From the IMG/VR virus record IMGVR_UViG_3300020165_000003: a DNA stretch of 40,162 bases; one strand, given 5' to 3'. Below are positions 1 through 31,677 of this stretch, piece after piece. Positions within the stretch are counted from its first letter, which is position 1. The number at the start of each line of letters is the position of its first letter. Both the position numbers and the translations under genes were made by a program. The notes below the pieces were generated by a model that was not told the origin of the DNA, made no database searches, and was given only the letters and a program-made list of their open reading frames with translations. The DNA is from a virus.

Positions 1-127
1 TGATTCATTTTTCTATCTAGAAATGGTATTCTAATTAATATCTCTGTAGAGATAACACCAAGGCCATTACTAGTTGCTTTTGTTTCCGTGAAATTAGTTA
101 CGGAATCTTTGTTGTTGTGCTCAAATA
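1..127. repeat. Terminal direct repeat, left copy (identical to 40036..40162)
   Basis: tgattcatttttctatctag...gttgtgctcaaata read at both window ends; exact 127-nt identity by direct comparison. Confidence 0.97.
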
Positions 128-16465: not shown

Positions 16466-16493
16466 AACCTTTAAAAACAAATATCGTGAAAAA
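16466..16493 (+). repeat. Junction-element variant AACCTTTAA-N11-GTG, containing the 23-nt repeat TTAAAAACAAATATCGTGAAAAA (16471-93)
   Basis: Shares AACCTTTAA with the 25.3-26.2 kb elements. The 23-mer recurs at 16898-16920 with one change (G to A in the start codon). Confidence 0.7.
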
Positions 16494-18216: not shown

Positions 18217-18396
18217 ATGATAGACTACAGAATTTCATATGTTAATAGTTATGGAGAGGAGCGCATTGCTCCTTTCATTTTTAGCAACATTGCAGAAGCA
18301 AGACAAACAAGAAAATTGTATCAAGAAAAAGGATACCATTCGATAAGTATTCTTGCGTATAGAACGGAAGACAATAACCCTATAAACAACAAATAA
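18217..18396 (+). CDS. Hypothetical protein, 59 aa
   Basis: Hand-translated MIDYRISYVNSYGEERIAPF...NNPINNK. Fills the gap between listed ORFs. Confidence 0.4.
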   Translation: MIDYRISYVNSYGEERIAPFIFSNIAEARQTRKLYQEKGYHSISILAYRTEDNNPINNK

Positions 18397-18397
18397 A

Positions 18398-18658: not shown

Positions 18659-18690
18659 TCAAGAATTATTAATCTTATAATTTATATATT

Positions 18691-18993: not shown

Positions 18994-19279
18994 CCTAATT
19001 ATAAAAGCAGACTTGAATCTTCTTTACGGAATCCTTGGAGAATTTGTAGAAATAGCAAAGCTCTTCGAGGATTCTAAAGAGATGCTGAAGTTGTTGCAAA
19101 AGCTTGATGGGTTTGTAGCAATACACGAAACAAGATGTAACGATTTAATGATGCTTAAAGATAAAGTAGATACTGCAAGAGCAGAATATCAAAGCTTGAC
19201 CTATAAGTATAAAGGAACGAAGGAAGCTTTAGAGCTTTTAAGGGAAGCACATAACGAATTATTAAACAGCAAATTATGA
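18977..19279 (+). CDS. Coiled-coil hypothetical protein, 100 aa
   Basis: ORF. Overlaps its neighbours at both ends. Confidence 0.5.
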   Translation: MRQADNLIIKADLNLLYGILGEFVEIAKLFEDSKEMLKLLQKLDGFVAIHETRCNDLMMLKDKVDTARAEYQSLTYKYKGTKEALELLREAHNELLNSKL

Positions 19280-19998: not shown

Positions 19999-20004
19999 AA
20001 CATT

Positions 20005-20613
20005 ATGCCTAATTGGTTTTATTTCTCTTTAGAAGTAGAGGGAAAAGAAAAAGATGTACAAGAGTTTGTACAAAATGTAAAAGGTTCAAAAGAGTTTGAT
20101 ACAGAAGCTTCAAACTTTGACTTTAACCATTTCATACCTCAGCCCGACAATATATTTAAAGACAACTTAGGGGAAAAAGAAAGGAAGGAATGTGAAGAAA
20201 AAGGTGTACCTAATTGGTACGATTGGAATGTAACTAATTGGGGAACCAAGTGGAATGCGAATGTAGATGTTGAGAATGGAGAGGGTACAAACTACCACAC
20301 CTTTCATATATCTACGGCTTGGGCGTTTCCCTCGCCTATAATAGATGTGATGCTTGATAAGTATTCCCACCTTTCCTTTCAAATAGAGGGAGAAGAGGAA
20401 AGTCAATCTTATGGTGTATATATAAAGCACGATAACGGAAACACTCAATGGTTAGAAGAAGAGGGTTTAATGGTCGATGAAGAGAATGGTCGAGAGATAT
20501 ATTATAAAGAAGACAAAGAATCTTTCTGCTACTTAGCTTATTACAAAGATGATGATAGCTTAGTTGAAGATCAAGAAGATTTTTATCCTGGAACTAAATA
20601 CTCTTGGTCGTGA
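20005..20613 (+). CDS. Api92 / DUF1281-like protein, 202 aa
   Basis: MPNWFYF.., FIPQPDNI, VPNWYDWNVTNWGTKWNA, TAWAFPSPII match my recollection of the DUF1281/Api92 family. Confidence 0.55.
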   Translation: MPNWFYFSLEVEGKEKDVQEFVQNVKGSKEFDTEASNFDFNHFIPQPDNIFKDNLGEKERKECEEKGVPNWYDWNVTNWGTKWNANVDVENGEGTNYHTFHISTAWAFPSPIIDVMLDKYSHLSFQIEGEEESQSYGVYIKHDNGNTQWLEEEGLMVDEENGREIYYKEDKESFCYLAYYKDDDSLVEDQEDFYPGTKYSWS

Positions 20614-20804
20614 AAAAAATACTTAGGAAACGTAAACACATAAGGTATCTACAATCTACCATTAGAGATTTGCATTGGGAAATAATTAATACTTCAATGC
20701 AAAGTACAAATGTAGGGTGGACAAATGAAACAACGGACTACATAGTTAATTGTGCGAAGCTTATTCGAAAGTATGAACGAAGACTTAAACTGCTAAAATA
20801 CTAA
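20604..20804 (+). CDS. Basic hypothetical protein, 66 aa (TTG start as listed)
   Basis: ORF. The listed start codon at 20604 is TTG. Confidence 0.35.
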   Translation: MVVKKILRKRKHIRYLQSTIRDLHWEIINTSMQSTNVGWTNETTDYIVNCAKLIRKYERRLKLLKY

Positions 20805-20911
20805 TGGTATTGATTTTAGACTTTATATGTTTGGCACTATCATTTTTTATAGTGCTTGGAATTTTAATTTTAATTTACGATGGAAAAGATATTTGGAGAA
20901 ATGGATGGTAA
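20804..20911 (+). CDS. Small membrane protein, 35 aa
   Basis: Hand-translated MVLILDFICLALSFFIVLGILILIYDGKDIWRNGW. TAATG overlap upstream. Confidence 0.3.
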   Translation: MVLILDFICLALSFFIVLGILILIYDGKDIWRNGW

Positions 20912-21152
20912 TATCCAAAACATTCACTCGGATGATGACTTTTGGTTTGGTCTATTTGGGAGAAAAATGGGATTAAAAAAAGTTTACCCTTTTGCGGAGG
21001 GGGACACTTACTTCACTATTGAAGATGGTCAAGTAGTAGAATCTACTTGGGATTGTGTAAGCGAGGAAATTTTTGATGATGATGTAGAAGAAATAATGCT
21101 TTACTTCAAGTCAGAAGATGATGCGAATAAATTCTTAAAACAAACGCACTGA
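20880..21152 (+). CDS. Strongly acidic small protein, 90 aa
   Basis: By my count 22 D/E versus 8 K/R. DDD clusters and aromatic residues. Confidence 0.5.
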   Translation: MEKIFGEMDGNIQNIHSDDDFWFGLFGRKMGLKKVYPFAEGDTYFTIEDGQVVESTWDCVSEEIFDDDVEEIMLYFKSEDDANKFLKQTH

Positions 21153-21153
21153 T

Positions 21154-21330
21154 ATGAAAGATAAATTTATAGCGTACTTACAAGTACAAGAGATAGGGGC
21201 TTACAATATGTTTGACCCAAGAGCAAGAGACTTAGCGCAAGAATTTTGTGAAGAGGAAATAAGCCTTAAAGATTGGGTTGTAATGATGAGAGAGTATAGC
21301 TCTTTGTATGATAAATATGTAAAAGAATAG
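21154..21330 (+). CDS. DUF5049-like small protein, 58 aa
   Basis: Hand-translated MKDKFIAYLQVQEIGAYNMFDPRARDLAQEF...YDKYVKE. The EIGAYNMFD pattern resembles DUF5049. Confidence 0.35.
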   Translation: MKDKFIAYLQVQEIGAYNMFDPRARDLAQEFCEEEISLKDWVVMMREYSSLYDKYVKE

Positions 21331-21332
21331 TC

Positions 21333-21965
21333 ATGAAGGTATTAGAATTATTTGCAGGTAGCCGTTCCATTGGAAAGGTTGCCGAGCAATTTGGTTGGGA
21401 AGTTTTCTCAGTAGATATCGAAGCCTTTGAAGGTGTAGATTATGTAACGGATATTATGGATTTTGATTACATCAATGTTCCGTTTATTCCCGATATCATA
21501 TGGGCATCGCCACCTTGCACTTCTTTTAGTGTAGCGAGTATTGGTAGACATTGGAATAAAGACCGAACTCCTAAGACTGATAACGCTATCAAGGGTATGA
21601 ATATGGTCAAGAAGACTCTGGAAATTATTCAACATTATACTTGGCACAATCCAAGACTCTACTACTACATAGAGAATCCAAGAGGTATGTTAAGGAAGAT
21701 GGACTTTATGCCTAATGATTTTAGAAAGACCGTTACATATTGTCAGTATGGAGATTCTAGGATGAAGCCTACGGATATTTGGACTAACAATAGGAATTGG
21801 ATTTCAAAGGAGCCTTGTAAGAATGGTTCGCCTTGTCACGTTTCTGCTCCAAGAGGATCAAGAACAGGCACTCAAGGTCTAAAGGGAAACTACGAAAGAA
21901 GTAAAATACCTACTGAACTATGTGTAGATGTTTTACTATCTTGTAGTAATCAATTACATTTATAG
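21333..21965 (+). CDS. Compact DNA (cytosine-5)-methyltransferase-like protein, 210 aa
   Basis: Motif I ELFAGSRS, motif IV ASPPCTSFS, motif VI IENPRG, C-terminal RSKIP. Too short for a classical target-recognition domain. Confidence 0.65.
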   Translation: MKVLELFAGSRSIGKVAEQFGWEVFSVDIEAFEGVDYVTDIMDFDYINVPFIPDIIWASPPCTSFSVASIGRHWNKDRTPKTDNAIKGMNMVKKTLEIIQHYTWHNPRLYYYIENPRGMLRKMDFMPNDFRKTVTYCQYGDSRMKPTDIWTNNRNWISKEPCKNGSPCHVSAPRGSRTGTQGLKGNYERSKIPTELCVDVLLSCSNQLHL

Positions 21966-21972
21966 TAATATA

Positions 21973-21993
21973 GGGGAGGCTCTATGCCTCCCC
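21973..21993 (+). terminator. Terminator-like hairpin
   Basis: GGGGAGGC-TCTAT-GCCTCCCC, followed by T/A-rich sequence. Confidence 0.6.
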
Positions 21994-22050
21994 TTATAAA
22001 TTATTATATTATTATTATTTATTATTATTATATTAATATATATTATAATA
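21994..22050. promoter_or_regulatory. 57-bp pure A+T tract ending in a fourth copy of TATTATAATA (22041-22050)
   Basis: No G or C between 21994 and 22050. (TTA)n-like. The palindrome ends 3 nt before ATG 22054. Confidence 0.6.
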
Positions 22051-22053
22051 CCT

Positions 22054-22821
22054 ATGACACTAACTGAAAAAAAATTGAAGGAGTTCTTTCCGACTGACAA
22101 TAGGTTCATCTTCTATGTAGCCAAGAGGTACGGAATGAGCCTGTACACTGATGACATAGTGAACGATGCGAGATACCACTCCATAGTCAACCTAACGAGG
22201 TATCTCAAGAAGTATGGGTGGGACTTCGAGTCCGAGGGAGAAGTTGTCTCAGCGGTCATGTATTCGATCCGTTATGGGATACTCCACGCTTATGGCGAGT
22301 ACAAGAAGTTGAACGAAAGGAACTTGGATATAAGACTCGCATCCGATTTTATCTTTGATGATGGCGATGAACTATACACCACCTACACTAAGAACCTTGC
22401 CGTTGAGGATGAAGAACAAGGTGGTTTAGTTTTCCTGTATAAGAATGCCGTAGAACATACGCTTACGGAATTAGAACGTAAGGTCTTGGATATGATGATT
22501 GATGGTTTCAATCTAGTAGAGATTGATAAGTGTTTAGAGTTAAAACAAGGACAGTCTTACTTAGCTAAAAAAAGAATACAAACGAGATTTAAGAAAGCAA
22601 TTAAATTAGAAAACAGAAATGAGAAACAACAAGAGTTTACCAGTGCTACTAACAAAGAACAAGTACAAAAGAATTTGCAATTTGTACGAGAGGATAACTG
22701 GTATAAATCCGTTATCGAAGACGAGAAGAAGAGAGGTCGTTATATCAAGGCAATGTCTTTTCTACATCCTGAGAAGGAAGTACAATATGAAGTATCAAAT
22801 GGTGGGGTGGTTAGCAGATAA
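22054..22821 (+). CDS. ECF/sigma-70-like transcription factor, 255 aa; last ~65 codons overlap the next gene
   Basis: Region-2-like FYVAKRYG..DDIVNDARYHSIVNL and region-4-like LTELERKVLDMMIDGFNLVEIDKCLELKQGQSYLAKKRI. Confidence 0.45.
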   Translation: MTLTEKKLKEFFPTDNRFIFYVAKRYGMSLYTDDIVNDARYHSIVNLTRYLKKYGWDFESEGEVVSAVMYSIRYGILHAYGEYKKLNERNLDIRLASDFIFDDGDELYTTYTKNLAVEDEEQGGLVFLYKNAVEHTLTELERKVLDMMIDGFNLVEIDKCLELKQGQSYLAKKRIQTRFKKAIKLENRNEKQQEFTSATNKEQVQKNLQFVREDNWYKSVIEDEKKRGRYIKAMSFLHPEKEVQYEVSNGGVVSR

Positions 22822-23086
22822 GAACCACGCAACGGTGATCCACTCAGTTAAGGTCATGAAGGATATGCTTGAAATAAAGGATGGTATGACGCTTAGTTCT
22901 ATTGAGGCATGGGAGAGGGTCTTCAATATGGAGTTCGGCTCGGAGGGTGGACTTAAACACGCATTCGAGATGCAGTTGGACAAACTCGTTATAGAGAGTG
23001 GTCTAGAACATAGCATTGTGGAAAGGCTGTTAACAAATAGAGCAGAAGATATTAGAAAATTACAACAGGATAGTGTATCTTTGTAG
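22619..23086 (+). CDS. DnaA domain-IV-like HTH DNA-binding protein, 155 aa
   Basis: LSKTRRREVVISRQCLFYILRR..MVGWLADKNHATVIHSVKVMKDML parallels E. coli DnaA LSKRRSRSVARPRQ..GRDHTTVLHACRKIE. Confidence 0.6.
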   Translation: MRNNKSLPVLLTKNKYKRICNLYERITGINPLSKTRRREVVISRQCLFYILRRKYNMKYQMVGWLADKNHATVIHSVKVMKDMLEIKDGMTLSSIEAWERVFNMEFGSEGGLKHAFEMQLDKLVIESGLEHSIVERLLTNRAEDIRKLQQDSVSL

Positions 23087-23116
23087 TAATCAAGTTTAAC
23101 TTAATACTTATAAACT

Positions 23117-23647
23117 ATGAGCAAGTATCAGTTTAAGACTACCAACATTAAGGGTAAGCAGTATGTTGAAGTCAATGAAAGAATCAAGTTCTTCCGATTG
23201 GAAGAGAAGTACAATGGTTGGTCTTTGAGTACCGAGGTGGTGCACTTAGATGAGAACTCTTGTGTTATCAGAGCGACAATCTGTAACTCAGATGGTATGG
23301 TGATCGCTACAGGATTTGCCCAAGAGGACAAGTCTTCATCCTACATTAACAAGACAAGCTATGTGGAAAATTGTGAGACTAGTGCCTGGGGCCGTGCTTT
23401 GGCTAATCTCGGTATTGGTATTGACACTTCTATTGCGAGTTCAAACGAGGTGGCCATTGCTATCGCAAAACAAAACAGTAAACCTCAAGCTTCGGCTCCG
23501 GAAACTACTTCGCTGAAAGAACTTACTGATGATGTAAAGAATCGTATGATTGAAGCAGTCAAGGATGGTAAGAAGGAAGCCGTAGAGAATGCGCTTGGCG
23601 GATACAAGGTTACTGCTAAGGTTAAGAAAGAAATTCTATCTGTCTAA
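23117..23647 (+). CDS. Rad52/Sak-like single-strand annealing protein candidate, 176 aa
   Basis: KQYVEVNERIKFFR.., ENCETSAWGRALANLGIG resembles the Rad52-type xSDAxKRAxxxxGIG signature. Two genes upstream of the exonuclease gene (23832..24590). Confidence 0.4.
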   Translation: MSKYQFKTTNIKGKQYVEVNERIKFFRLEEKYNGWSLSTEVVHLDENSCVIRATICNSDGMVIATGFAQEDKSSSYINKTSYVENCETSAWGRALANLGIGIDTSIASSNEVAIAIAKQNSKPQASAPETTSLKELTDDVKNRMIEAVKDGKKEAVENALGGYKVTAKVKKEILSV

Positions 23648-23832
23648 TGAATGAAAGCACGCCAACAGGTTTAAGGATTTTGCAAGACAATTTTAAATTA
23701 GAGATTGTAAAGTCTGAAGACGAACAAGAGTTCTATTTAGTATTTGACATTTGGGGCGAAGAGATTTGTCCAATGTCTTTTTCCAGACACGAACTTGGAG
23801 ATGTTATTTATAAACTAGAAGAACTTTTATAA
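23647..23832 (+). CDS. Hypothetical protein, 61 aa
   Basis: ORF with ATGA-type overlaps at both ends. Confidence 0.45.
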   Translation: MNESTPTGLRILQDNFKLEIVKSEDEQEFYLVFDIWGEEICPMSFSRHELGDVIYKLEELL

Positions 23833-24590
23833 TGAACGCAATAGAGAAATTTAAGGATGATGAAGCATACTATGCTGACAAGGATTACTTATCCAATAGT
23901 ATGTTAAAGCTTTTAAGACAGTCTCCTACTAAGTTTCATTTAATGAGACAAGGTAAGTGGTCTTATCCCTCAGCATCTTTCTTTGATGTGGGTACAGCAC
24001 TTCATGCTTTATTTCTCGAAGGCGTTGATAAGACGATCCTTTGGAGCGGAACAAGAAGAGGTAATGATTATAAAGAGTTTAAGGCTACACACCAAGATAA
24101 GTTAGTCTTACCTAAAAAAGATTATGACCTTGTTCACGCAATGCACGATAAACTGATGAGGCTCTCGGAAGTTAGTGAATTGATGGGAGATAGTTTCGAG
24201 CCAGAAGTTCCTGGTATTATGAACTTAGTAACTGAATCTTTTGCTGAATTAAAATTTAAAGGCAAAGCAGATGCTCTAGTTAATAAGGATGGAAGAAAAT
24301 ATCTCGTAGACCTAAAGACAACTGCTAAGAGTTTAGATGACTTTAAGAAAGGTGCGAGGTGGATGATGTATAACCAACAAGCTTACTTATACAGTAGGAT
24401 TTTTGGTGTTGATGATTTTTATTTCTTGGTTATAGAGAAAGAGTTTCCTTACGAAGTAGGAATATTCAGGGCGGGTGTTGACTTCCTACTTAGTGGTCAG
24501 CACGAATTTGAAACATCCGTGAGCTTATACGAGGAACTCTTTCTTAATCAAGATTTTAACCCCTATAATGTGCGCTATGGCGAAATTTAA
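23832..24590 (+). CDS. PD-(D/E)XK exonuclease (RecE / DUF3799-like), 252 aa
   Basis: GTALHALFLEG.., GKADALVNKDGRKYLVDLKTT, NQQAYLY, FLVIEKEFPYEVGIF. Confidence 0.6.
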   Translation: MNAIEKFKDDEAYYADKDYLSNSMLKLLRQSPTKFHLMRQGKWSYPSASFFDVGTALHALFLEGVDKTILWSGTRRGNDYKEFKATHQDKLVLPKKDYDLVHAMHDKLMRLSEVSELMGDSFEPEVPGIMNLVTESFAELKFKGKADALVNKDGRKYLVDLKTTAKSLDDFKKGARWMMYNQQAYLYSRIFGVDDFYFLVIEKEFPYEVGIFRAGVDFLLSGQHEFETSVSLYEELFLNQDFNPYNVRYGEI

Positions 24591-24975
24591 TAAGTACGAG
24601 AATGTGTGTCTGCACGCTTGTTCATCCGTAACAGGTGTGAGTATTGTAGACATAATGAGCAATAATAAAAAGCAAGAGGCTGTAATGGCTAGGGCTTTGT
24701 CTTGCTCGGTATTAAAATTCTGTGGCTTTGGAATCCGTGAGATTTCAAGAATCACGAACACCGATCCTAAAGGAGTGTCTGTATATATATCCGGGCACGA
24801 TGATAGAATGGATGATGTTAGATACAAAAGGTCTTATGCAAAGGCTGTATCTTTTATTCATACATATGAAGAGTTTTCTGATGAAGGCTTGAATGATAAG
24901 GTTCAAATATTATATGAGAACCTTATGGAATTAAATGCAAAGTACGATCACCTAGAACAATTATTAATAAAGTAA
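24568..24975 (+). CDS. Second DnaA domain-IV-like HTH protein candidate, 135 aa
   Basis: VTGVSIVDIMSNNKKQEAVMARALSCSVLKF.GFGIREISRIT. Weaker than 22619..23086. Confidence 0.35.
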   Translation: MCAMAKFNKYENVCLHACSSVTGVSIVDIMSNNKKQEAVMARALSCSVLKFCGFGIREISRITNTDPKGVSVYISGHDDRMDDVRYKRSYAKAVSFIHTYEEFSDEGLNDKVQILYENLMELNAKYDHLEQLLIK

Positions 24976-24986
24976 ATTAAATCAAA

Positions 24987-25232
24987 ATGGCAGACAAGGT
25001 ATTTGTAGGTAAGACAACAGTAGTCGATACGAAGTATGGACAGATTGTTAAAGTGGCATTAGGCCCACAAGATTTCGAAGTTCTAACCAACTCGAAGAAC
25101 GAGAAGGGTTGGGTTAATCTTGAGATTAAAGACAAGCGTGATGGCGGTAAGTACATCCAACTCCAAGGAGAGTATAACGCCAAAGCAAAACCAGTAGCGG
25201 TAAACGATACTGATGATGGTTTACCATTCTAA
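24987..25232 (+). CDS. Miniature ssDNA-binding-like protein with SSB-type acidic C-terminal tip, 81 aa
   Basis: C-terminus NDTDDGLPF mimics the bacterial SSB tip D-D-D-I-P-F. Beta-rich body. Adjacent to the recombination genes. Confidence 0.5.
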   Translation: MADKVFVGKTTVVDTKYGQIVKVALGPQDFEVLTNSKNEKGWVNLEIKDKRDGGKYIQLQGEYNAKAKPVAVNDTDDGLPF

Positions 25233-25263
25233 TTTTTTCCATGTTTTATTTGTTGTAACAGTA

Positions 25264-25280
25264 GGGGGGCAATGCCCCCC
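25264..25280 (+). terminator. Terminator-like GC hairpin
   Basis: GGGGGGC-AAT-GCCCCCC, then TTCTTT. Confidence 0.55.
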
Positions 25281-25292
25281 TTCTTTAACTAT

Positions 25293-25316
25293 AACCTTTA
25301 ACACCAAAGAGAGATG
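25293..25316 (+). repeat. Junction element J0: AACCTTTAACACCAAAGAGAGATG (non-coding copy)
   Basis: 24 nt ending in the ATG of 25314..25532. Confidence 0.85.
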
Positions 25317-25532
25317 AAAACACCAATGCAAGAGTTGATTGAGACATTTGAAGAAATGCGCTCTCCTATTGATAGTAAAGTAGATGTAGACTTTGCTATA
25401 TCACTTGTTAAATCAATGCTTGAGAAAGAGAAAGAGGTGATGGAGTCTGCTTGGCAAGATGGTATGTATGAATGTGACGGAGACGGAACATTTGAAGATT
25501 TCTACAAAACCTTTAACACCAAAGAGAAATGA
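25314..25532 (+). CDS. Hypothetical protein, 72 aa (C-terminus ..TFNTKEK encoded by J1)
   Basis: ORF. C-terminus shared with 26080..26241. Confidence 0.5.
   Translation: MKTPMQELIETFEEMRSPIDSKVDVDFAISLVKSMLEKEKEVMESAWQDGMYECDGDGTFEDFYKTFNTKEK
25508..25531 (+). repeat. Junction element J1: AACCTTTAACACCAAAGAGAAATG
   Basis: Encodes TFNTKEK of the upstream gene and ends in the ATG of the 33-aa ORF. Confidence 0.85.
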
Positions 25533-25630
25533 GTTTATTTAAATTATGGTTAGCACTTGCACCATTATACTTTGTACTTATCGGTATCTATAGAGAAATT
25601 AGAGAAATTAATAACACTAAAATGAAATGA
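25529..25630 (+). CDS. Small membrane protein, 33 aa
   Basis: Hand-translated MSLFKLWLALAPLYFVLIGIYREIREINNTKMK. ATGA-type overlaps at both ends. Confidence 0.35.
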   Translation: MSLFKLWLALAPLYFVLIGIYREIREINNTKMK

Positions 25631-25866
25631 AAGAGAAATTAATTAAAGAGATTAAGGAGAGTTTAGAATTTGCTAAATCTCGTGGAGAGTTAAACCAAGA
25701 AGCATCTTGGACATTTGAACAAGGAGTACTTCTTGAATATGCGGAAGCAGAGTACATTCTTGAATTGCTTAAAACAAAAGAGTGTCCGTTCTTTCCAACA
25801 GTGAACACAACAAGCGCTACTATATGTGGTGTTTGTGGTAAAGAGAAATTTGAACATAACCTTTAA
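25627..25866 (+). CDS. Hypothetical protein, 79 aa
   Basis: ORF with CGVCGKEK motif. Stop supplied by J3 (AAC CTT TAA). Confidence 0.5.
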   Translation: MKEKLIKEIKESLEFAKSRGELNQEASWTFEQGVLLEYAEAEYILELLKTKECPFFPTVNTTSATICGVCGKEKFEHNL

Positions 25867-25881
25867 AAAAAAATAGAAATG
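25858..25881 (+). repeat. Junction element J3: AACCTTTAAAAAAAAATAGAAATG
   Basis: Same 24-nt architecture. Read as N-L-stop, a different frame from J1 and J5. Confidence 0.8.
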
Positions 25882-26067
25882 AAAACAGAAATTAAAACAA
25901 TCCAAGAAATCATTGACGGAGCAGATTGCCCACTACCTATTGAAACAATCCCTAACTATATGGGTGTAAATCTATGTAGTGTAGAGGCAATCAGTTGGAC
26001 AAGACAAGATGATAACCAACTTGTAAACCTTACCATTCATTTTACACCGAATAACGATAACCTTTAA
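25879..26067 (+). CDS. Hypothetical protein, 62 aa
   Basis: ORF. Stop supplied by J4. Confidence 0.5.
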   Translation: MKTEIKTIQEIIDGADCPLPIETIPNYMGVNLCSVEAISWTRQDDNQLVNLTIHFTPNNDNL

Positions 26068-26082
26068 AACAAAACAAAAATG
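26059..26082 (+). repeat. Junction element J4: AACCTTTAAAACAAAACAAAAATG
   Basis: Same 24-nt architecture, ending in ATG 26080. Confidence 0.8.
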
Positions 26083-26241
26083 AAAGCAATAGAACAATTA
26101 CTAAACGAGTTTAGAACTTGGCAGAAAGAGTGGGACACATCCAATAAAGGAATGAACGCAGAAGATTTCTGCGCCTCACTTGAAGAAAAGTATGAGGTAA
26201 CCTTTAACACCAAAGAGAAATGGGAAGAAAAACAAAATTGA
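26080..26241 (+). CDS. Hypothetical protein, 53 aa, partial paralog of 25314..25532
   Basis: Hand-translated MKAIEQLLNEFRTWQKEWDTSNKGMNAEDFCASLEEKYEVTFNTKEKWEEKQN. Confidence 0.4.
   Translation: MKAIEQLLNEFRTWQKEWDTSNKGMNAEDFCASLEEKYEVTFNTKEKWEEKQN
26199..26222 (+). repeat. Junction element J5: AACCTTTAACACCAAAGAGAAATG (identical to J1)
   Basis: Exact 24-nt copy of J1. Ends in ATG 26220. Confidence 0.85.
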
Positions 26242-26450
26242 TGATGGACAATAGGTCTGGATCTAATAACTCAGCAGTTACCAAGAAAGTAAAGCTTACT
26301 CCTTTTAGAATTACAGATGGTGTAATGAAGATTGGTAAACACAAGGGTAAGAAGTTGTCGGAAGTTCCAAGAAGTTATTTAGAGTGGATGGTCGAAAAGA
26401 TGGACATAGCTAACCACTATAAGAATGCTATAAAAGATATTCTAAAATGA
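26220..26450 (+). CDS. DUF3820 / QSregVF_b-like small protein, 76 aa (alternative start 26241)
   Basis: KIGKHKGKKLSEVPRSYLEWMVEK resembles the FGKYKGKxLxEVPxxYLxWL pattern. Confidence 0.45.
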   Translation: MGRKTKLMMDNRSGSNNSAVTKKVKLTPFRITDGVMKIGKHKGKKLSEVPRSYLEWMVEKMDIANHYKNAIKDILK

Positions 26451-26740
26451 CAGATGGCGATGAGGGACAAATGATTTACTATGTCGGTGTTAAGTTAGCC
26501 TACAAGGTAAAGAAGGGTAATGGTTACATTAACCACTACAGAACAATGGAGTTCCCCACTAGGATGAAAACCATTGATGATATGAATAAGCAGCCAGAGA
26601 TGATAATGAATTTGATGGCCGCTTTAAAATTGACAAGTAAAAAGATTTACGACTTTCACGTCTATGAAGAACTACATAGAAAAGAACTAAGTGAATCGTT
26701 TACACATAAGGAAAAAGATTATCTAAAAGAAAAAGAGTAA
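26447..26740 (+). CDS. Hypothetical protein, 97 aa
   Basis: ORF with ATGA overlaps at both ends. Immediately upstream of the helicase (loader role is pure speculation). Confidence 0.45.
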   Translation: MTDGDEGQMIYYVGVKLAYKVKKGNGYINHYRTMEFPTRMKTIDDMNKQPEMIMNLMAALKLTSKKIYDFHVYEELHRKELSESFTHKEKDYLKEKE

Positions 26741-27675
26741 TGGCATTAAGCAAGTTTGTATACACAGCGAAAGAGGTTAAGGGCAGTTTGACCTCGCTGA
26801 GAAAAGAAGGAGTAAAGAAAGGAACGTGGACAGGATTTGATTCATTGTTCGACAAATACTCTATGAAAAAAGGAAGCACCACATATATCTATGCGGGTGC
26901 TCATCAAGGTAAATCACAATTCGGTTTCGAGTTGATGATGAATACGGCTCAGTATTCGGGATGGAAGTGGGCAGTCTATAGCCCAGAGACAGGATCGCCA
27001 ACGGAGGTGTTCGCTGAACTCTTATGGGTGTATCTTCGTAAGCCCTTCCTTATCAATGACCATATGACTGCTACCGATGAGGAGACAGAGAAGGCATTGG
27101 AGTTTATTAATGAACACTTCTTTATTATAGATAGTGGTCTGCAAGACCTAACTATAGAAGGATTCTACACTTGTGTCCAAGAGATTGAGGAGTCTCAGTT
27201 CACAGAGATAGATGGTTGTTTTGTCGATCCGTTTACGGAGATAAAGACCGATGTAACTTCTGGAGTAAGAGATGACATCGCTATTGGTCAGATACTCACG
27301 AAGGTTAGAAAGCACTCTTCAGAGAGGGACTATCATTCGATTGTAACAGTACACACTAAACACCAACAGGCTAAGTACAAGAACGGAGTACCATATATGG
27401 ACAAGCCCACTATGAATGACATAGCCGGGGGGATGCAGTGGAGCCGTAAAGGTATGATGGTTATAAACGTATGGAGGTGTCCCTTCGGATTGGAAGATGG
27501 GAACGGAGTTCCGTATGAGCCTAATCAAGTTGAGATTACAGTTGTGAAAGCCAAGCCTAAGATTGTAGGTAAGCTTGGATCAGTAACACTATTCTATGAT
27601 AAATTAATGAACAGATACTATGAACTCGACAAACAAGGAAACAAAGTCTTCGCAAGTCCACAGCCTAATTCTTGA
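26740..27675 (+). CDS. DnaB/T7 gp4-like replicative helicase (RecA-fold domain only), 311 aa
   Basis: Walker A GAHQGKSQF, Walker B-like GCFVDPF, YSPETG. Confidence 0.7.
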   Translation: MALSKFVYTAKEVKGSLTSLRKEGVKKGTWTGFDSLFDKYSMKKGSTTYIYAGAHQGKSQFGFELMMNTAQYSGWKWAVYSPETGSPTEVFAELLWVYLRKPFLINDHMTATDEETEKALEFINEHFFIIDSGLQDLTIEGFYTCVQEIEESQFTEIDGCFVDPFTEIKTDVTSGVRDDIAIGQILTKVRKHSSERDYHSIVTVHTKHQQAKYKNGVPYMDKPTMNDIAGGMQWSRKGMMVINVWRCPFGLEDGNGVPYEPNQVEITVVKAKPKIVGKLGSVTLFYDKLMNRYYELDKQGNKVFASPQPNS

Positions 27676-27712
27676 TCGTAAGATTGCCTTTGCTAATTTA
27701 GTGAGGGCGTAT

Positions 27713-27931
27713 ATGAGGTTTAATGTAGACGATGCTCTTAACATAGTTGTTGAAAAAGATGGCAACATATCTATCAACGGAAACCTTTATAAGTTTGATG
27801 TATCTGACTACACAGGATGTACGGAAAGATATATATTTTTTAATCCATCTTCTGGCAGATTAGTTCTACAAGGAAATAATGTTAAAAAGATTTACAAAGT
27901 AGAAGTTGATTTGCTAGATGAAATAGACTAA
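27713..27931 (+). CDS. Hypothetical protein, 72 aa (start moved to first ATG after the helicase stop)
   Basis: The ORF-track start at 27620 would overlap the helicase by 56 nt. Confidence 0.4.
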   Translation: MRFNVDDALNIVVEKDGNISINGNLYKFDVSDYTGCTERYIFFNPSSGRLVLQGNNVKKIYKVEVDLLDEID

Positions 27932-27940
27932 CTTAGTGAT

Positions 27941-28204
27941 ATGGAAACAAGAGATTTAATTATTGAAGTTTCTACGGAAGTTACAAACTTGCTTTTAGAG
28001 AAGAATGATGCCTACGGGGACTCAGCCCTTTACCCCGTGGGTATCTTCTCAAAGGGAGAAGCCGTAGATAGTTTATGTGCAAGGATTGATGATAAGCTTA
28101 TGCGGATTAAGTCTCGTGGCATTACAGATGCAACAGAGGATACTGTGCAAGATTTGATAGGATATTTGATCCTGTTAAAAATTGCAATAAGGAACAAGGG
28201 ATGA
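27941..28204 (+). CDS. DUF1599-like protein (nucleotide-modification-associated domain family, from memory), 87 aa
   Basis: LLEKNDAYGDS.., SLCARIDDKLMRIKS pattern. Confidence 0.35.
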   Translation: METRDLIIEVSTEVTNLLLEKNDAYGDSALYPVGIFSKGEAVDSLCARIDDKLMRIKSRGITDATEDTVQDLIGYLILLKIAIRNKG

Positions 28205-28656
28205 GTAAGTTTGAAGCCAGAAAGTTCAATCAAGAATCCTACGACACAAACGATGCTTACGGGAAAGCTATCGTTACTGCCTGGCTAAAAGACCAGGATT
28301 GGGTATCAAAGATAATAGATGAAGAAGACTATGGCATCGACCTAGAAGCCTTAGACCATGAAGGTAAGTCTCACTTCTTCGAAGCAGAAGTTAAAGGTAA
28401 CTATCCTTGGACAGACAAAGAATCCTTTCCTTTCGACACGGTATCTTTCTTAGGTAGAAAGAAAAAGTGGGAAGGCAAGGGTTTTTATTATGTGCTTGTT
28501 TGTGCAGAGACACAGGCATTGTGTATTGCACATTCCTCAGATATATTTAAAGAAGACTTTAGAGAAGTTCGTAGAATAAGAACGTCTCACAGAAACGGAT
28601 TAGATGCGTTCTATCGTGTGCCTAAAGATTTATGTAGATGGATTACACAGAAATAG
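28201..28656 (+). CDS. PD-(D/E)XK-fold nuclease candidate, 151 aa
   Basis: YGIDLEAL ... HFFEAEVKG fits D-(x)n-E-x-K. Confidence 0.45.
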   Translation: MSKFEARKFNQESYDTNDAYGKAIVTAWLKDQDWVSKIIDEEDYGIDLEALDHEGKSHFFEAEVKGNYPWTDKESFPFDTVSFLGRKKKWEGKGFYYVLVCAETQALCIAHSSDIFKEDFREVRRIRTSHRNGLDAFYRVPKDLCRWITQK

Positions 28657-29009
28657 AACTAATGTTGCCAAAGCCTCCTAGCTTAAATATGATTTATGCT
28701 GGAAAGCACTGGACCTACAGAAAGAAAAAGAAAGATGAGTATAAAATCATTTGCCAAGAAGCTTTATCAAAATATGACAAGTTTACTTTTGATGCCTTTA
28801 AAATGGCTATTGAGTATAACAGTAGGCTTGACATTGACAATGGTATTCTTGTATCAAAATTTTTGGCGGATACCCTTGTTTCTGAAGGTATTGTTCCGGA
28901 TGATAACAAAAAATACTACACAGAAGTCAAAATAACTTATAACGCTGAACTACCAAAGGACACTTACAAAGTGACGCTTATATGTAAAAATCTAAAATAT
29001 GCTGAGTAA
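28638..29009 (+). CDS. rusA: RusA-like Holliday junction resolvase, 123 aa
   Basis: LPKPPSLNMIY and DIDNGILVSKFLADTLVSEGIVPDDNKKY parallel E. coli RusA LPWPPSNNRYY and [22 protein letters not shown]. Confidence 0.65.
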   Translation: MDYTEIELMLPKPPSLNMIYAGKHWTYRKKKKDEYKIICQEALSKYDKFTFDAFKMAIEYNSRLDIDNGILVSKFLADTLVSEGIVPDDNKKYYTEVKITYNAELPKDTYKVTLICKNLKYAE

Positions 29010-29023
29010 TCGTAACTACTATA

Positions 29024-29035
29024 ATTGTAAATTAA
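29024..29035 (+). promoter_or_regulatory. Late-motif copy ATTGTAAATTAA (exact) on the plus strand
   Basis: 15 nt after the rusA stop and 32 nt upstream of ATG 29068. Heads the block containing the gp55-like gene. Confidence 0.45.
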
Positions 29036-29067
29036 TTAAGAATCGCATAGACTTGTACCTTTATGAA

Positions 29068-29211
29068 ATGGCACAGCTATTTGCGAACCTTGGAACGGAC
29101 TCTACACTTGAAGATATTCAAGCTGCTTATAAGAAGGAAAATGAGATGATAGATAAGATAGCCGAACTAGATCCCGCCAAGGCTTTATCTATTAGACCTT
29201 ATGCAAATTGA
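29068..29211 (+). CDS. Hypothetical protein, 47 aa (or 70 aa from ATG 28999)
   Basis: In-frame Met MAQLFANLG.. downstream of the motif. The longer form overlaps rusA and contains the motif. Confidence 0.35.
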   Translation: MAQLFANLGTDSTLEDIQAAYKKENEMIDKIAELDPAKALSIRPYAN

Positions 29212-29413
29212 TGAAACATATTCGGAAATAACATCCCAAGAAGCAGACTTCTTGATATCAATGTATGAAAAAATCAGAGAACTTATTGTCAGCGGAAACA
29301 AAGTTACCTTGGTACGGTTGGGTTATGAACTCGACATTAGCACCGCAGAACTTTCAGACTACCTCTTTGACATTGTACGAATAGTAGATCGTATTGAAGA
29401 AGAAATACGATAA
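29201..29413 (+). CDS. Hypothetical protein, 70 aa
   Basis: ORF. Confidence 0.45.
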   Translation: MQIDETYSEITSQEADFLISMYEKIRELIVSGNKVTLVRLGYELDISTAELSDYLFDIVRIVDRIEEEIR

Positions 29414-29801
29414 ACAATTAATAGAGAAGGAATCAATAATCTCTGCACAGCAAGGTAAAATTACCGATGCTCTGGGGCGTTTTATATTAGCGAGAGCCAA
29501 GGAGATATCCTACTATTCATTTATAACTAACGGTAACGAAGAGCTTCGACAATCTCTTGTAGACGAAGCCGTTATGAGAGTGTGCGAAAAGTTTCTTTAT
29601 TACTATAGACCAGGGAAGTCCGCTGCTAATTTAATAATATCTATAATTTATTCTACAATGAATAATAAGATAGTCTCTCTAAAGTGGAGAGATGTGTATG
29701 GGCAGAAAATAAAAGGACGGATATATACAATAGAAGACGGAGAGGTTAAATTAAAACTTGTTCGTTATATTCGTGATGATTATACAAGTAAAAAATTATG
29801 A
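29394..29801 (+). CDS. T4 gp55-like late sigma factor candidate, 135 aa (TTG start)
   Basis: TDALGRFILARAKEIS..F..GNEELRQSLVDEAVMRVCEKF...SAANLIISIIYSTMNNKI follows the gp55 pattern NDTIGLAIMLIAEGLS..F.GY..WKQEMIADGIEASIKGL...NPHAYITQACFNAFVQRI (recalled). Confidence 0.4.
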   Translation: MKKKYDKQLIEKESIISAQQGKITDALGRFILARAKEISYYSFITNGNEELRQSLVDEAVMRVCEKFLYYYRPGKSAANLIISIIYSTMNNKIVSLKWRDVYGQKIKGRIYTIEDGEVKLKLVRYIRDDYTSKKL

Positions 29802-30046
29802 TTGATATTTATGAGGGATGGTTTATAGCCATTGGAATGGGGTTTTTATTTGCGTATCTATTTGTGTTTGAGCCTTGGGGCTGGATTATAGAGAACATAC
29901 TGCCTTACAAACCGTTTAACTGTGTATTATGTTTGTCGTTCTGGAGCTGCTTAATTATATTTGCAGCAATGGATTTACATCCTATGCACGCAATTTATTC
30001 AAGCTTAATTGCGGAACTCACTTATAGAAAGCTAGTTAATGAGTAA
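29798..30046 (+). CDS. Membrane protein, 82 aa (2-3 TM segments)
   Basis: Hydrophobic stretches FIAIGMGFLFAYLFVF and CVLCLSFWSCLIIFAAM. Confidence 0.5.
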   Translation: MIDIYEGWFIAIGMGFLFAYLFVFEPWGWIIENILPYKPFNCVLCLSFWSCLIIFAAMDLHPMHAIYSSLIAELTYRKLVNE

Positions 30047-30056
30047 TGTAAATTAT
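30045..30056 (+). promoter_or_regulatory. Late-motif variant AATGTAAATTAT (2 mismatches) on the plus strand, upstream of the holin block
   Basis: Overlaps the TAA stop of 29798..30046. Confidence 0.3.
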
Positions 30057-30120
30057 AAAAGCGACCAAGTATTTTTGTACTGGGACGAACCTATTTTTAC
30101 TAACTCTAATTCTAAAAAGA

Positions 30121-30246
30121 ATGATTCCAACACCGATGAAGAACGAGACAAGAAAACAATTTATCCAACGCTGTAAATTAGTAGGCATAGAAGATAAACA
30201 GTTATGTGCTCAGACCTTTATTAAGGAAGCTAAAAAAACCAAGTAA
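30121..30246 (+). CDS. Hypothetical small protein, 41 aa
   Basis: Hand-translated MIPTPMKNETRKQFIQRCKLVGIEDKQLCAQTFIKEAKKTK. Confidence 0.25.
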   Translation: MIPTPMKNETRKQFIQRCKLVGIEDKQLCAQTFIKEAKKTK

Positions 30247-31212: not shown

Positions 31213-31677
31213 TTAATATCTTTTGTACATGGTTCTGTTATCTTCAGATTTATAAGCTATAAGAACCTCACCTCTATTGTTCTCTTTTATATAACTTACA
31301 TGAACCCATGCAAACTCACCGTTTTCGTCTGGGAACTCTCCTATTAATTGGTCAAAGTATAAGTGGTCTTTTATGAAAAGAAATATGTCTTTATTAGTCA
31401 TACCTCCAAAAATATGGGCATCAACGTCTATCGCCTCTCCTTTTGTGTGCTGGCTTCTAGAACTCCCCTTGATGTATTTGTTTAAGGATTCTGATCTATA
31501 ACCCGAAGTAACCGCTATTGGATGTGCGAAGTGGTTTCTTAAAGGTTGAAAAATATTTAGAGCAGTAGACTTTAGATTTATTAAGTGCTCTACTGTAGGC
31601 TCGTTTTCTATCCCCAGCCTCTTTGCAGTGGCAGACTTCGTTAGTTCCGCAAGAGTTAGGTTCGCAGTTAGTCTCAT
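31213..31677 (-). CDS. Endolysin, peptidase M15 (D-Ala-D-Ala carboxypeptidase / L-Ala-D-Glu peptidase type)
   Basis: SGYRSESLNKYIKGSSRSQHTKGEAIDV .. WVHVSY: the H-x6-D...H zinc-site pattern of Peptidase_M15_3/4. Confidence 0.85.
   Translation of the reverse strand: MRLTANLTLAELTKSATAKRLGIENEPTVEHLINLKSTALNIFQPLRNHFAHPIAVTSGYRSESLNKYIKGSSRSQHTKGEAIDVDAHIFGGMTNKDIFLFIKDHLYFDQLIGEFPDENGEFAWVHVSYIKENNRGEVLIAYKSEDNRTMYKRY

Follow-up and report, generated by a model that had tools for sequence, protein, structure and literature searches.

Mosaicism in phage genomes has been explained by two models, homologous exchange at conserved linkers and illegitimate recombination followed by selection, and the linker model has been left without clear examples because conserved linkers cannot be found at most mosaic boundaries (PMC3029335). 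Among described systems, the closest analogues of the element reported here are the PeSLs of T4-type phages (Arbiol et al. 2010, PMC2839356; Comeau et al. 2014, PMC4122927), which are intergenic, sequence-variable units made up of a sigma-70 promoter, a terminator stem-loop and a Shine-Dalgarno sequence, and for which excised mini-circles from exchange between nearby copies are a feature of the class. Short repeats of 29 and 58 bp in halovirus HF2 are reported to have been conjectured to be promoters and to have been cloned 5' of a reporter gene (PMC8707807). Here, we describe a 24-nt element repeated in the DNA of a virus (IMG/VR record IMGVR_UViG_3300020165_000003; the whole stretch of 40,162 nucleotides that was analysed is referred to as the window) and its occurrence in public viral and metagenome contigs. 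We consider it probable that the element is a standard stop/start junction between small cassettes which combines an A-rich leader without a Shine-Dalgarno sequence with a short-homology crossover site. The junction occurs in hyperplastic parts of the early region in a wide range of uncultured marine phages that probably infect Flavobacteriia.

Five exact copies of AACCTTTAA-N12-ATG, designated J0, J1, J3, J4 and J5, lie on the + strand within 930 bases of the window, against 0.47 expected over its whole length, and the ATG that closes each copy is the start codon of the ORF beginning there (Table 1). With at most one mismatch allowed, this pattern gives six matches in the window, again with 0.47 expected and with six reached by 0 of 100 shuffles, and the bare 9-mer AACCTTTAA occurs eight times where 1.1 occurrences are expected. 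A sequence-only reading of this DNA had claimed five elements of the same length, each ending in the ATG of the next ORF, and all of its coordinates for them were reproduced, together with the identity of J1 and J5, the single difference in J0 (G for A at position 21) and the use of two reading frames, T-F-N-T-K-E-K in J1 and J5 and N-L-stop in J3 and J4, which the translations of the window confirm. J0 is non-coding, as that reading had it, and follows a terminator-like hairpin that ends 13 nt before it and is kept in relatives, before their first element; the GTG-start variant it had named is likewise present and opens a 51-codon ORF. A similar leader claimed for a 209-aa late gene does exist, but at 990-1013 on the minus strand, 3 nt from where it had been placed, and its kinship to the element is doubtful because it has seven mismatches to the 24-mer. 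By its resemblance to the element, the stretch between J1 and J3 that precedes the 79-aa gene is, with low confidence, probably a sixth, decayed copy. Two further occurrences of AACCTTTAA, at 19881 (+) and 31539 (-), were taken as chance matches because they are intragenic and have no ATG at the proper distance.

Table 1. Element copies, cassette genes and associated features of the window (positions count from its first nucleotide).
Feature	Coordinates	Strand	Remarks
Variant copy, AACCTTTAA-N11-GTG	16466..16488	+	Before 51-codon GTG-start ORF, in a different part of the early region
G+C-rich terminator-like hairpin, G6CAATGC6	25264..25279	+	After 81-aa SSB-like gene; left edge of variable cassette region
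Element copy J0, AACCTTTAACACCAAAGAGAGATG	25293..25316	+	Non-coding DNA; ends in ATG of 72-aa gene
Cassette gene, 72 aa (MKTPMQEL family)	25314..25532	+	Last seven codons (TFNTKEK) inside J1; TGA stop overlaps next ATG
Element copy J1	25508..25531	+	Perfect consensus match; frame T-F-N-T-K-E-K
Cassette ORF, 33 aa, hydrophobic	25529..25630	+	Starts at ATG of J1
Probable decayed copy, AATTAATAACACTAAAATGAAATG	25606..25629	+	17 of 24 bases; ends in ATG (25627) of 79-aa gene
Cassette gene, 79 aa	25627..25866	+	Ends N-L-stop inside J3
Element copy J3	25858..25881	+	Four mismatches, in A-rich half; TAA (positions 7-9) is stop of upstream gene
Cassette gene, 62 aa	25879..26067	+	Ends N-L-stop inside J4
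Element copy J4	26059..26082	+	Four mismatches
Cassette gene, 53 aa	26080..26241	+	Reads through J5 (…TFNTKEKWEEKQN)
Element copy J5	26199..26222	+	Perfect match; right edge of variable region
Gene, 76 aa, ExoX-like C-terminal / QSregVF_b motif	26220..26450	+	Last gene with an element before its start

The array consists of co-oriented promoterless ORF cassettes separated by the element, and in every locus all copies lie on one strand, 100-400 nt apart. Comparison of the cassette proteins of the window with PHROGs, Pfam and NCBIfam returned no function, except for the ExoX-like C-terminal motif of the 76-aa gene. The 53-aa gene remains open through J5 because ATGG at that point yields no TGA stop. 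Across all loci, proteins encoded downstream of the element have a median length of 57 aa and form 115 families with almost no annotation. The largest of these, MKTPMQEL…YYNETFNTKEK, includes the 72-aa gene of the window and ends in the element; it has 467 relatives, and in the loci 32 members stand behind 31 different upstream contexts. Very small hydrophobic ORFs like the 33-aa ORF are frequent downstream of the element in other loci.

The consensus of the 24-nt element is AACCTTTAACACCAAAGAGA[A/G]ATG, often with GA or T directly 5', and the context counts given here (254, 302, 204 and ~300) are among the matches listed from public viral and metagenome contigs. An ATG stands exactly at +22 in 202 of the 254 AACCTTTAA contexts listed, and in a sample independent of the motif 42 of 85 gene starts in variable regions lie within five mismatches of the 24-mer, versus 2 of 624 backbone starts; the element is concentrated in hyperplastic regions before small ORFs without known function. 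Upstream genes run into it in all three frames: among the 302 contexts listed, 123 read TFNTKEK-stop, 45 read N-L-stop and 9 end at a TAA at -1..2, with 6 more open through the element and about 90 that no long ORF enters. Seven loci have a tRNA-Met or tRNA-Arg gene whose last 4 nt overlap the element at a constant offset. Where TFNTKEK is encoded, 134 of 154 sites have a single codon set in common; the fraction expected is 0.0005, given that just 11% of Thr codons are ACC. Frame usage, the non-coding and tRNA contexts and the codon test strongly support conservation at the nucleotide level and not as a protein tail, in agreement with the selection on the nucleic acid that had been proposed from the window. 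A frameshift site was considered and rejected, as the main form of the element has CCTTTAAC, which does not follow the X XXY YYZ heptamer pattern.

Comparison between loci places the junctions between unrelated sequences at the element. Flanks are unrelated across the ~300 contexts listed; among the 204 contexts listed, 132 upstream and 132 downstream clusters occur in 197 combinations. When copies are compared, 102 of 103 pairs lose homology precisely at the 5' edge, and 105 of 107 lose it precisely behind the ATG. The backbone order (exonuclease, 135-aa gene, SSB-like gene, terminator, variable region, 97-aa gene, helicase) recurs in 34 loci, whose variable regions measure between 147 and 2208 nt. 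When the window is aligned with individual loci, homology on the left side ends at 25290-25297, at J0 (L003, L005 and L006), and on the right side begins at 26196-26198 (L002, L003 and L004) or, in the case of L001, at 26202, inside J5, with the downstream sequence 99.4% identical; for L003 it is absent from J0 through J5. Loci L253 and L254, which are 98.6-99.6% identical, differ by two single-cassette indels that are both bounded by the element, and 19 pairs of cassettes with at least 90% identity have both flanks unrelated. Single-linkage clustering of the loci by large proteins gave one component of 227 loci and is too permissive to count backbones, so backbones were compared directly instead. 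Different backbones share only element-bounded blocks as DNA of substance, these being one to three cassettes at 99-100% identity in four different phage backbones (100% over 650 nt for L251 and L253), and one identical 73-aa protein is carried on at least 133 contigs and seen in four different backbones.

The element is therefore a boundary for the swap, insertion and deletion of small genes between otherwise unrelated genomes. A recombination boundary that shuffles small-gene cassettes was among the roles offered by the sequence-only reading, and it is directly shown by the edge-exact loss of homology, the element-bounded indels and the shared blocks; the search of related phages and metagenomes for cassette gain or loss, which the same reading had put forward, brought out both element-bounded indels and swaps. 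Polymorphic positions within the element are almost unlinked to either flank and show no sharp switch in linkage at any one position, and this near absence of linkage fits crossovers or conversion within the element, without singling out a pathway.

As a stop/start junction and crossover site, the element joins a gene end to the following gene start in one fixed unit. The TAA at positions 7-9 is the stop for one frame, the TGA overlapping the start (ATGA) for a second and, when a T stands 5' of the element, the resulting TAA at -1..2 for the third. Positions 8-21 form an A-rich leader without a Shine-Dalgarno sequence, and the ATG of the next gene stands at a fixed distance. Because the same 24 nt stand at both ends of a cassette, recombination between copies can delete, duplicate, insert or swap whole cassettes, and would do so while sparing neighbouring reading frames and start regions. 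A point against this role is that 24 nt is close to the shortest length at which homologous recombination is efficient. We infer that the crossovers are short-homology events, both within a genome and between co-infecting phages, probably assisted by phage exonuclease and annealing proteins. Beside its array the window encodes a RecE/ExoVIII-like DUF3799 nuclease, an SSB-like gene and RusA, and in other carriers ERF annealing proteins adjoin DUF3799. A 176-aa protein of the window has a C-terminal tail in common with one such ERF protein; its comparison with PDB and NCBIfam gave no meaningful match, the ERF core was not matched, and sequence comparison revealed no annealing protein in the window. 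The extreme conservation of the element may come in part from selection on cassettes for continued mobility.

The 3' half of the element would act as a translation start region and permit termination-reinitiation coupling, and its sequence appears compatible with a translation-initiation cassette in a host without Shine-Dalgarno sequences. Backbone gene starts carry no Shine-Dalgarno motif. The leader has A at -6, -11, -13 and -14, and is a non-optimal start context for Flavobacterium, in which A is favoured at -3, -6, -12 and -13 (PMC6847099), since the bases at -3 and -12 are G and C. Its predicted accessibility is similar to that of control gene starts. Ribosomes alone are insufficient to account for near-identity over 24 nt, and the element is not essential for expression, because it has decayed before genes that persist (in L062, L063 and L038).

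Several other explanations were weighed against the stop/start junction and crossover site. If the element were the conserved C-terminus …ETFNTKEK of one expanded small-protein family and its link to the next ATG incidental, the largest downstream family would end in the element, as it does, with a Y-Y-x-E-T-F motif that begins before it. The codon and frame tests already refute this account: identical codons recur far beyond expectation, the N-L-stop frame, the contexts that no long ORF enters and those after tRNAs are left unexplained, the same tail is found on many unrelated proteins, and homology between copies begins exactly at the element. The prevalence of ATG at +22 and the unrelated flanks likewise speak against one duplicated C-terminus without a link to start codons, and we give that account practically no chance, although a shared C-terminus may still be the origin of the 5' half of the element. 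Equally negligible is the explanation that the mosaic junctions are chimeric metagenome assemblies joined at a shared repeat. It would fit the 246 of 280 junction types that are known from one locus each, but 34 types are present in at least two loci (some possibly the same contig fetched twice), the same element-bounded block with its junctions recurs in five separate ENA assemblies, orthologous junctions are kept among relatives from different samples, and a 24-nt repeat is shorter than sequencing reads and the final k-mers of the usual assemblers. A dedicated mobility enzyme that recognises the element, whether by integron-like recombination or as the target of free-standing cassette HNH endonucleases, is in our judgement very unlikely. 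Such an enzyme would account for junctions precise to the nucleotide, for cassettes that are promoterless, co-oriented and arrayed, and for a 188-aa, putatively HNH-like family (from NUMOD4 and HNH motifs read by eye) that is found in five different contexts as a cassette with elements on its flanks. Precise edges would, however, arise equally if the element were the sole shared homology, the HNH gene is absent from most arrays, no dyad symmetry exists in the element beyond CTTT/AAAG, no integrase (tyrosine recombinase) was found among the ~46 window proteins scanned or in the gene tables of L251-L255, and the internal polymorphisms lack the sharp linkage switch noted above.

Recognition of the element in RNA could also keep 24 nt constant, if a trans-acting regulator (a translational repressor, an endoribonuclease or a small antisense RNA) switched all cassette genes together in the manner of T4 RegA/RegB. 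More than 20 nt are conserved, beyond the need of a ribosome that uses no Shine-Dalgarno sequence, the element is always on the sense strand at the start of a message, and processing of the tRNAs whose 3' ends directly precede some copies would leave it as the mRNA 5' end. No candidate factor was found, though, no locus has an antisense copy, and very different backbones carry the element and would all need the same factor. Pairing within the 24 nt is limited to CTTT/AAAG with an unremarkable predicted structure, the element contains no stable stem-loop (some copies, J0 among them, are preceded by hairpins, but J1 and J3-J5 are not), and Rfam 15 gave no match at gathering score in the window and a chance-level one (E = 0.12) in 25150-26350. 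Cleavage in the 5' half would moreover strip upstream messages in the TFNTKEK frame of their stop codon; the RNA processing site that the sequence-only reading had offered is unsupported and fits poorly with copies that carry the last codons of the upstream gene, and we hold an RNA target to be unlikely. Unlikely, too, is a phage early or middle promoter with a -7/-10-type box and a very short leader, in which case every cassette would come with a promoter, as happens in T4-type PeSLs, and recombination would follow as a side effect. Terminator-like hairpins or operator-like direct repeats (TAGGCGCA twice, CAAAGTGTAAA twice) precede J0 and many copies in relatives, 25232-26740 holds no visible host-type promoter, and another motif of the phage, ATTGTAAATTA, is also found a few bases 5' of late-gene ATGs. 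Within the element, AACCTTTA matches the Flavobacterium -7 box, TAHHTTTG, at four of six near-invariant positions, but the near-invariant T-12 and G-5 are both A, and no information content is seen at a fixed distance upstream. Such a promoter would leave a leader of 8-9 nt, an unusual length given that 87% of leaders in F. johnsoniae are longer than 10 nt. Copies follow one another at intervals of 140-350 nt within an apparent single operon and abut tRNA genes with a 4-nt overlap, promoters do not characteristically keep a strict distance to the ATG, and none of the proteins tested was recognised as a phage sigma factor or RNA polymerase. The window shows no enrichment of TAHHTTTG, which does not occur in 25232-26740, and a sigma-70 scan was uninformative (57 sites versus 54 expected). 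The middle promoter among the earlier suggestions gains no positive support.

Carriers were sought among cultured phages, in which megablast of window positions 24000-28000 gave no match and blastn of the element with its flanks gave chance-level partial matches only, with no carrier in that collection. Thirteen matches to the 20-mer were found in bacterial and archaeal genomes; six were rejected as unrelated Campylobacter coding sequence (44-48% G+C, with no ATG), and seven are on low-G+C MAG contigs, of which six have arrays of two to five copies. The helicase has its nearest cultured relatives in Flavobacterium, Riemerella and Tenacibaculum phages, and the carriers are probably uncultured marine phages of Flavobacteriia. 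Literature searches for the element sequence or for such a motif in flavobacterial phages returned nothing relevant.

With one 24-nt sequence at hundreds of boundaries, at single-gene resolution, with neighbours intact and in unrelated backbones, the linker model can be put to the test in a group of ecological importance. The 24-mer allows the mobile small genes of these phages to be collected from metagenomes, and the element is a compact natural stop/start junction with which operons can be built in Bacteroidota, a group without Shine-Dalgarno sequences. A broader proposal, which we put forward tentatively as a possibility, is a cross-lineage pool of expression-ready micro-gene cassettes, an integron without an integrase, in which one 24-nt linker stops up to three frames, restarts translation and is kept near-invariant by selection for mobility and perhaps also by a trans-acting factor. 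If true, the linker would be a general address tag of the mobile accessory gene pool of these phages, possibly including anti-defence genes, and the genes of the pool would be recoverable by cassette PCR or k-mer fishing.

Known systems resemble the element in different respects. The HF2 repeats (PMC8707807) are likewise short repeats between viral genes, and are intergenic, AT-rich promoter candidates of an archaeal virus, whereas the element overlaps coding sequence, crosses lineages and has no promoter evidence. Integron attC arrays also hold small, co-oriented, promoterless ORF cassettes with a recurring site, drawn from a shared mobile pool, and place identical cassettes in unrelated replicons. 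Unlike attC, the element has no imperfect inverted repeat or dyad symmetry, comes with no integrase among the proteins scanned, includes the next start codon and often the last codons of the previous gene, and is carried by phage genomes of lytic type. ATGA stop/start overlaps bring about translational coupling, and T4 RegA/RegB have common start-region targets in many early genes. The element shares with the former an upstream stop that overlaps the next start, or lies 12 nt before it, and with the latter a common sequence at many early gene starts; coupling junctions and RegA/RegB sites are short and degenerate, whereas the element is a 24-nt unit identical in hundreds of unrelated contexts. 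Like the linker sequences of lambdoid and other mosaic phages (PMC3029335), which are short conserved sites for homologous recombination at module boundaries with non-homologous flanks, the element is a short shared sequence with both flanks non-homologous; in contrast to the linkers proposed, it is found at hundreds of boundaries, is tied to a start codon and delimits single genes of ~57 aa (median) instead of functional modules. With T4-type PeSLs it has in common that short motifs are repeated in hyperplastic regions 5' of small genes without known function, that they span from the upstream stop codon to the downstream start codon, and that their copies bound indels and replacements between close relatives and are taken as points of exchange between unrelated sequences. 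The element does not match the host primary-sigma promoter consensus that PeSLs contain, and where PeSLs have promoter and terminator, neither a host promoter nor a stem-loop can be recognised within the element. It is instead a unit of 24 nt, almost invariant, usually located inside the upstream coding sequence and common to phages with unrelated backbones.

The window is the complete genome (40,035 bp; either a circular assembly or a terminally redundant one) of a tailed phage, with small early genes on the plus strand and late genes on the minus strand (coordinates in the table below). No DNA-level similarity to it was found among cultured phages. The best similarity of its helicase is to proteins of Flavobacterium, Riemerella and Tenacibaculum phages (27% identity), and the leaders of its gene starts are A-rich and carry no Shine-Dalgarno motif, which together fit a host in the Flavobacteriales.

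Coordinates of features in the window and in loci (L numbers) fetched from public viral and metagenome data
Feature	Source	Position	Strand	Remark
Terminal direct repeat	window	1-127, 40036-40162		exact, 127 nt
Terminase	window	12983-14230	minus	late gene
Portal	window	32197-33429	minus	late gene
Endolysin	window	31213-31677	minus	late gene
Small early genes	window	roughly 15000-30200	plus	about 50
Helicase	window	26740-27675		
176-aa protein	window	23117-23647		upstream of ExoVIII-like nuclease
Methyltransferase-family matches	window	19276-19998, 21333-21965		early genes, DNA-methyltransferase families (phrog_757)
353-aa late protein	window	1981-3042	minus	weaker methyltransferase-like match
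Imperfect TCTTC-rich repeats	window	2054-2304		within 1981-3042; spaced 12-87 nt; encode Glu/Lys-rich repeats
Element J0	window	25293	plus	opens 72-aa ORF
Element J1	window	25508	plus	opens 33-aa ORF
Element J3	window	25858	plus	opens 62-aa ORF
Element J4	window	26059	plus	opens 53-aa ORF
Element J5	window	26199	plus	opens 76-aa ORF
Decayed copy	window			17/24 bases; ahead of 79-aa gene at 25627
GTG-start variant	window	16466		
Rejected matches	window	19881, 31539		chance matches inside genes
Late-gene leader	window	990-1013		7 mismatches
ATAACCCTATAA	window	17072-17083		17 nt off ATG at 17101
ATAACCCTATAA	window	18374-18385		12 nt off ATG at 18398
ATTGTAAATTA	window	3817-3827, 12265-12275, 39143-39153	minus	5-6 nt ahead of ATG of late genes ending at 3811, 12251, 39137
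ATTGTAAATTA	window	1970-1980	minus	about 30 nt ahead of ATG at 1938
Tandem units/direct repeats	L005	3220-3400		
Tandem units/direct repeats	L003	8730-8810		
tRNA cluster	L210	10744-11006		
tRNA cluster	L211	2001-2263		
tRNA cluster	L214	649-911		
tRNA cluster	L208	2529-2625		
tRNA cluster	L203	3854-4099		
ERF-family protein	L255	3615-4172		
188-aa cassette gene	L041	about 3655-4221		

The window holds five exact copies of the 24-nt element, AACCTTTAA-N12-ATG, and the ATG of each opens an ORF, in agreement with the sequence-only reading. Its further observations also hold: J1 and J5 are identical and encode TFNTKEK, J3 and J4 read N-L-stop, J0 differs at position 21 and sits 3' of a G6CAATGC6 hairpin, and a variant with a GTG start is present. 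With up to one mismatch to AACCTTTAA-N12-ATG there are 6 matches against 0.47 expected, a number reached in 0 of 100 shuffles. The related leader claimed for a late gene was found, but with so many mismatches that its kinship to the element is doubtful. ATAACCCTATAA, which precedes two further ATGs, resembles the element's 5' half (ATAACCTTTAA). A second start-codon-fixed motif, ATTGTAAATTA, has 13 matches with one mismatch against 3 expected and may be a late promoter giving very short leaders or none.

In IMG/VR the 20-mer AACCTTTAACACCAAAGAGA occurs in at least 119 stretches, and the contigs that carry the matches listed are about 4 to 212 kb long; the element is absent from the cultured phages searched. 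Across the loci fetched, the ATG lies exactly at +22 in 202 of 254 unique AACCTTTAA contexts, giving the consensus AACCTTTAA[C/A]AC[C/A]AAAGAGA[A/G]ATG, and arrays are co-oriented with copies 100-400 nt apart and at most nine per locus. Among GTDB genomes the element is found only on seven low-G+C MAG contigs, and on six of these it forms arrays of two to five copies. Six other GTDB matches of the 20-mer, in Campylobacter MAGs (L194, L196, L200, L201, L205, L206), are not the phage element: they lie inside the conserved coding sequence of an unrelated gene (44-48% G+C, no ATG downstream) and are a caution for k-mer fishing.

Conservation of the element could reflect either a protein C-terminus or the nucleic acid itself. 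Over 302 unique upstream contexts, 123 show the TFNTKEK reading with a TGA stop overlapping the ATG, 45 the N-L-stop reading with TAA at positions 7-9, and 9 a TAA formed by the preceding T and the first two element bases; no long ORF enters the element in about 90, an ORF stays open through it in 6, and the rest are ambiguous or read past ATGG. At seven loci a tRNA-Met or tRNA-Arg gene runs into the element at constant offset, its final four bases doubling as the element's first four. When TFNTKEK-stop was back-translated with full degeneracy and used for a scan, an identical codon set appeared at 134 of 154 sites, and at 41 of 56 among loci first seen in that scan; the fraction expected from window codon usage is 0.0005, as ACC is a rare Thr codon (11%). 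The TFNTKEK tail is moreover present on many unrelated proteins. The codon, frame, tRNA and non-ORF evidence, together with these unrelated carriers, therefore rules out a protein motif and bears out the earlier proposal of conservation at the nucleic-acid level. Members of the large MKTPMQEL…YYNETF family, to which the window's 72-aa gene belongs, both follow the element and end in it, and the element's 5' half may descend from the 3' end of this family. The phage tRNA clusters (also at L220 and L087) comprise Arg-TCT, Leu-TAA and Met-CAT, spacer-less in three loci, the last tRNA overlapping the element by CACC; some are on contigs of 68-248 kb.

Backbone order is kept in 34 relatives (176-aa, 61-aa, ExoVIII-like nuclease, 135-aa and SSB-like genes, terminator, variable region, 97-aa gene, helicase), with a variable region of 147 to 2208 nt whose first cassette usually has an element at its start. 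This sample was chosen independently of the motif; at a tolerance of 5 mismatches, it matches the 24-mer at 42 of 85 gene starts in the variable region but at only 2 of 624 in the backbone. Clustering of 204 contexts gave 132 upstream and 132 downstream clusters in 197 combinations. Homology stops exactly at the element's 5' edge in 102 of 103 pairs sharing only the downstream gene, and exactly after the ATG in 105 of 107 sharing only the upstream sequence. Between the window and L003, homology is lost from J0 to J5; with L001, 99.4% identity downstream begins inside J5. Nineteen pairs of cassettes share 90% identity or more, and in each pair neither flank is related.

Some loci (L005, L003, L060, L032, L052) have additional repeats in the stretch that separates the first element from the terminator of the SSB-like gene: one to three copies of a ~32-nt tandem unit (ACAAAGTAAGGGTAAAACCT[G/T]AC…, with a GTAAGG…CCTTAC hairpin) and, immediately upstream of the element, direct repeats (ATAGGCGCA-N12-TAGGCGCA or CAAAGTGTAAA-N12-CAAAGTGTAAA). 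Both look like iterons or operators, and both are absent from the window itself. At L019 the GGCGCA module lies between two element copies, like a non-coding cassette.

The window's 72-aa protein has a 73-aa relative whose sequence occurs unchanged on at least 133 contigs. The five that were read represent four backbones: Prim-Pol and YqaJ (L251); DnaB, ParB-methylase and terminase (L252); ERF, DUF3799 and Toprim (L253 and L254, about 70 kb each); and ERF and DUF3799 (L255, 39 kb). Different backbones have no DNA of substance in common except a block that comprises between one and three cassettes, begins with the first base of an element and ends with the ATG of another. In it L251 and L253 are 100% identical over 650 nt; the sole other match, of ~120 nt with 70% identity, lies in the ERF region (L253/L254 versus L255). 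At 98.6-99.6% identity, L253 and L254 are set apart by two indels, each of one cassette between element copies. Assembly chimeras are an unlikely source of these junctions: sequencing reads are longer than a 24-nt repeat, separate assemblies contain the same junctions, and 34 junction types are present in at least two loci. With homology lost exactly at its edges, indels bounded by its copies and blocks moving between backbones, the element is a recombination boundary at which small-gene cassettes are shuffled, one of the roles first suggested from the sequence.

Two reading frames meet a stop in the element, as does the third if a T precedes it. It has an in-frame TAA 12 nt ahead of the ATG and an A-rich leader, so that a crossover at any point within it would join any upstream to any downstream cassette with both genes undamaged. 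A stop kept at or near the next start would also permit termination-reinitiation; a role in translation, like the route of recombination, is inferred. Among the proteins encoded in the window are RusA, an ExoVIII/RecE-like nuclease (DUF3799) and an SSB-like protein whose tail carries DDGLPF; in other carriers ERF adjoins DUF3799. The 56 C-terminal residues (119-174) of the 176-aa protein are 55% identical to the tail of the ERF-family protein of L255, another element-bearing phage. Its core differs from that protein's N-terminal core and gave no identity by sequence comparison, which suggests a swapped annealing-protein core on a common partner-binding tail. Bases -3 to -1 go with the upstream gene, and polymorphisms at positions 10, 13 and 21 are nearly unlinked to either flank, a pattern in keeping with exchange or conversion inside the element, not with a cut at one fixed point. 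Some lineages have decayed copies ahead of retained genes; the element is therefore not essential for expression, which suggests that the excess of intact copies comes from the continued movement of cassettes whose ends are intact.

Other roles were weighed against this boundary function. That the element is a promoter seems improbable. In favour are the hairpin ahead of J0 and the absence of any host-type promoter from 25232 to 26740; against it, the near-invariant bases T-12 and G-5 of the Flavobacterium -7 box TAHHTTTG (PMC6847099) are missing, and the element has no conserved partner upstream, would imply a leader of only 8-9 nt, recurs inside operons and overlaps tRNA ends. A common RNA target of a regulator or nuclease, which would account for identity over 24 nt, also seems improbable; there is no candidate factor, no antisense copy in the loci examined and no Rfam match. 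Less likely still is a site for site-specific recombination or homing: HNH-like cassettes exist but are uncommon, the element has no dyad symmetry, and no integrase was found among the window proteins scanned. A 188-aa family, seen as an element-flanked cassette right after the SSB-like gene's terminator (L041, L072 and others), resembles an HNH homing endonuclease, to judge by its NUMOD4 and HNH motifs. Five different contexts were seen upstream of it, and it could take advantage of exchange at the element or promote it.

No description of the element was found in the searchable literature. The closest analogue of this cassette boundary is the PeSL of T4-type phages, a repeated promoter and stem-loop unit of hyperplastic regions that mediates indels and swaps between close relatives (PMC2839356, PMC4122927). 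Like PeSLs, the element is located in hyperplastic regions and its copies bound indels; unlike them, it has neither a recognisable host promoter nor a stem-loop. It is thus not a PeSL, although its part in the evolution of genomes appears similar. The element also agrees with the long-standing idea of conserved boundary sequences, which has been hard to document because such sequences are not findable at most mosaic boundaries (PMC3029335). What appears new is the unit's brevity and near-invariance, the way it overlaps tRNA ends and, in several frames, coding sequence, the start codon as a fixed part of the unit, and its spread over unrelated backbones.
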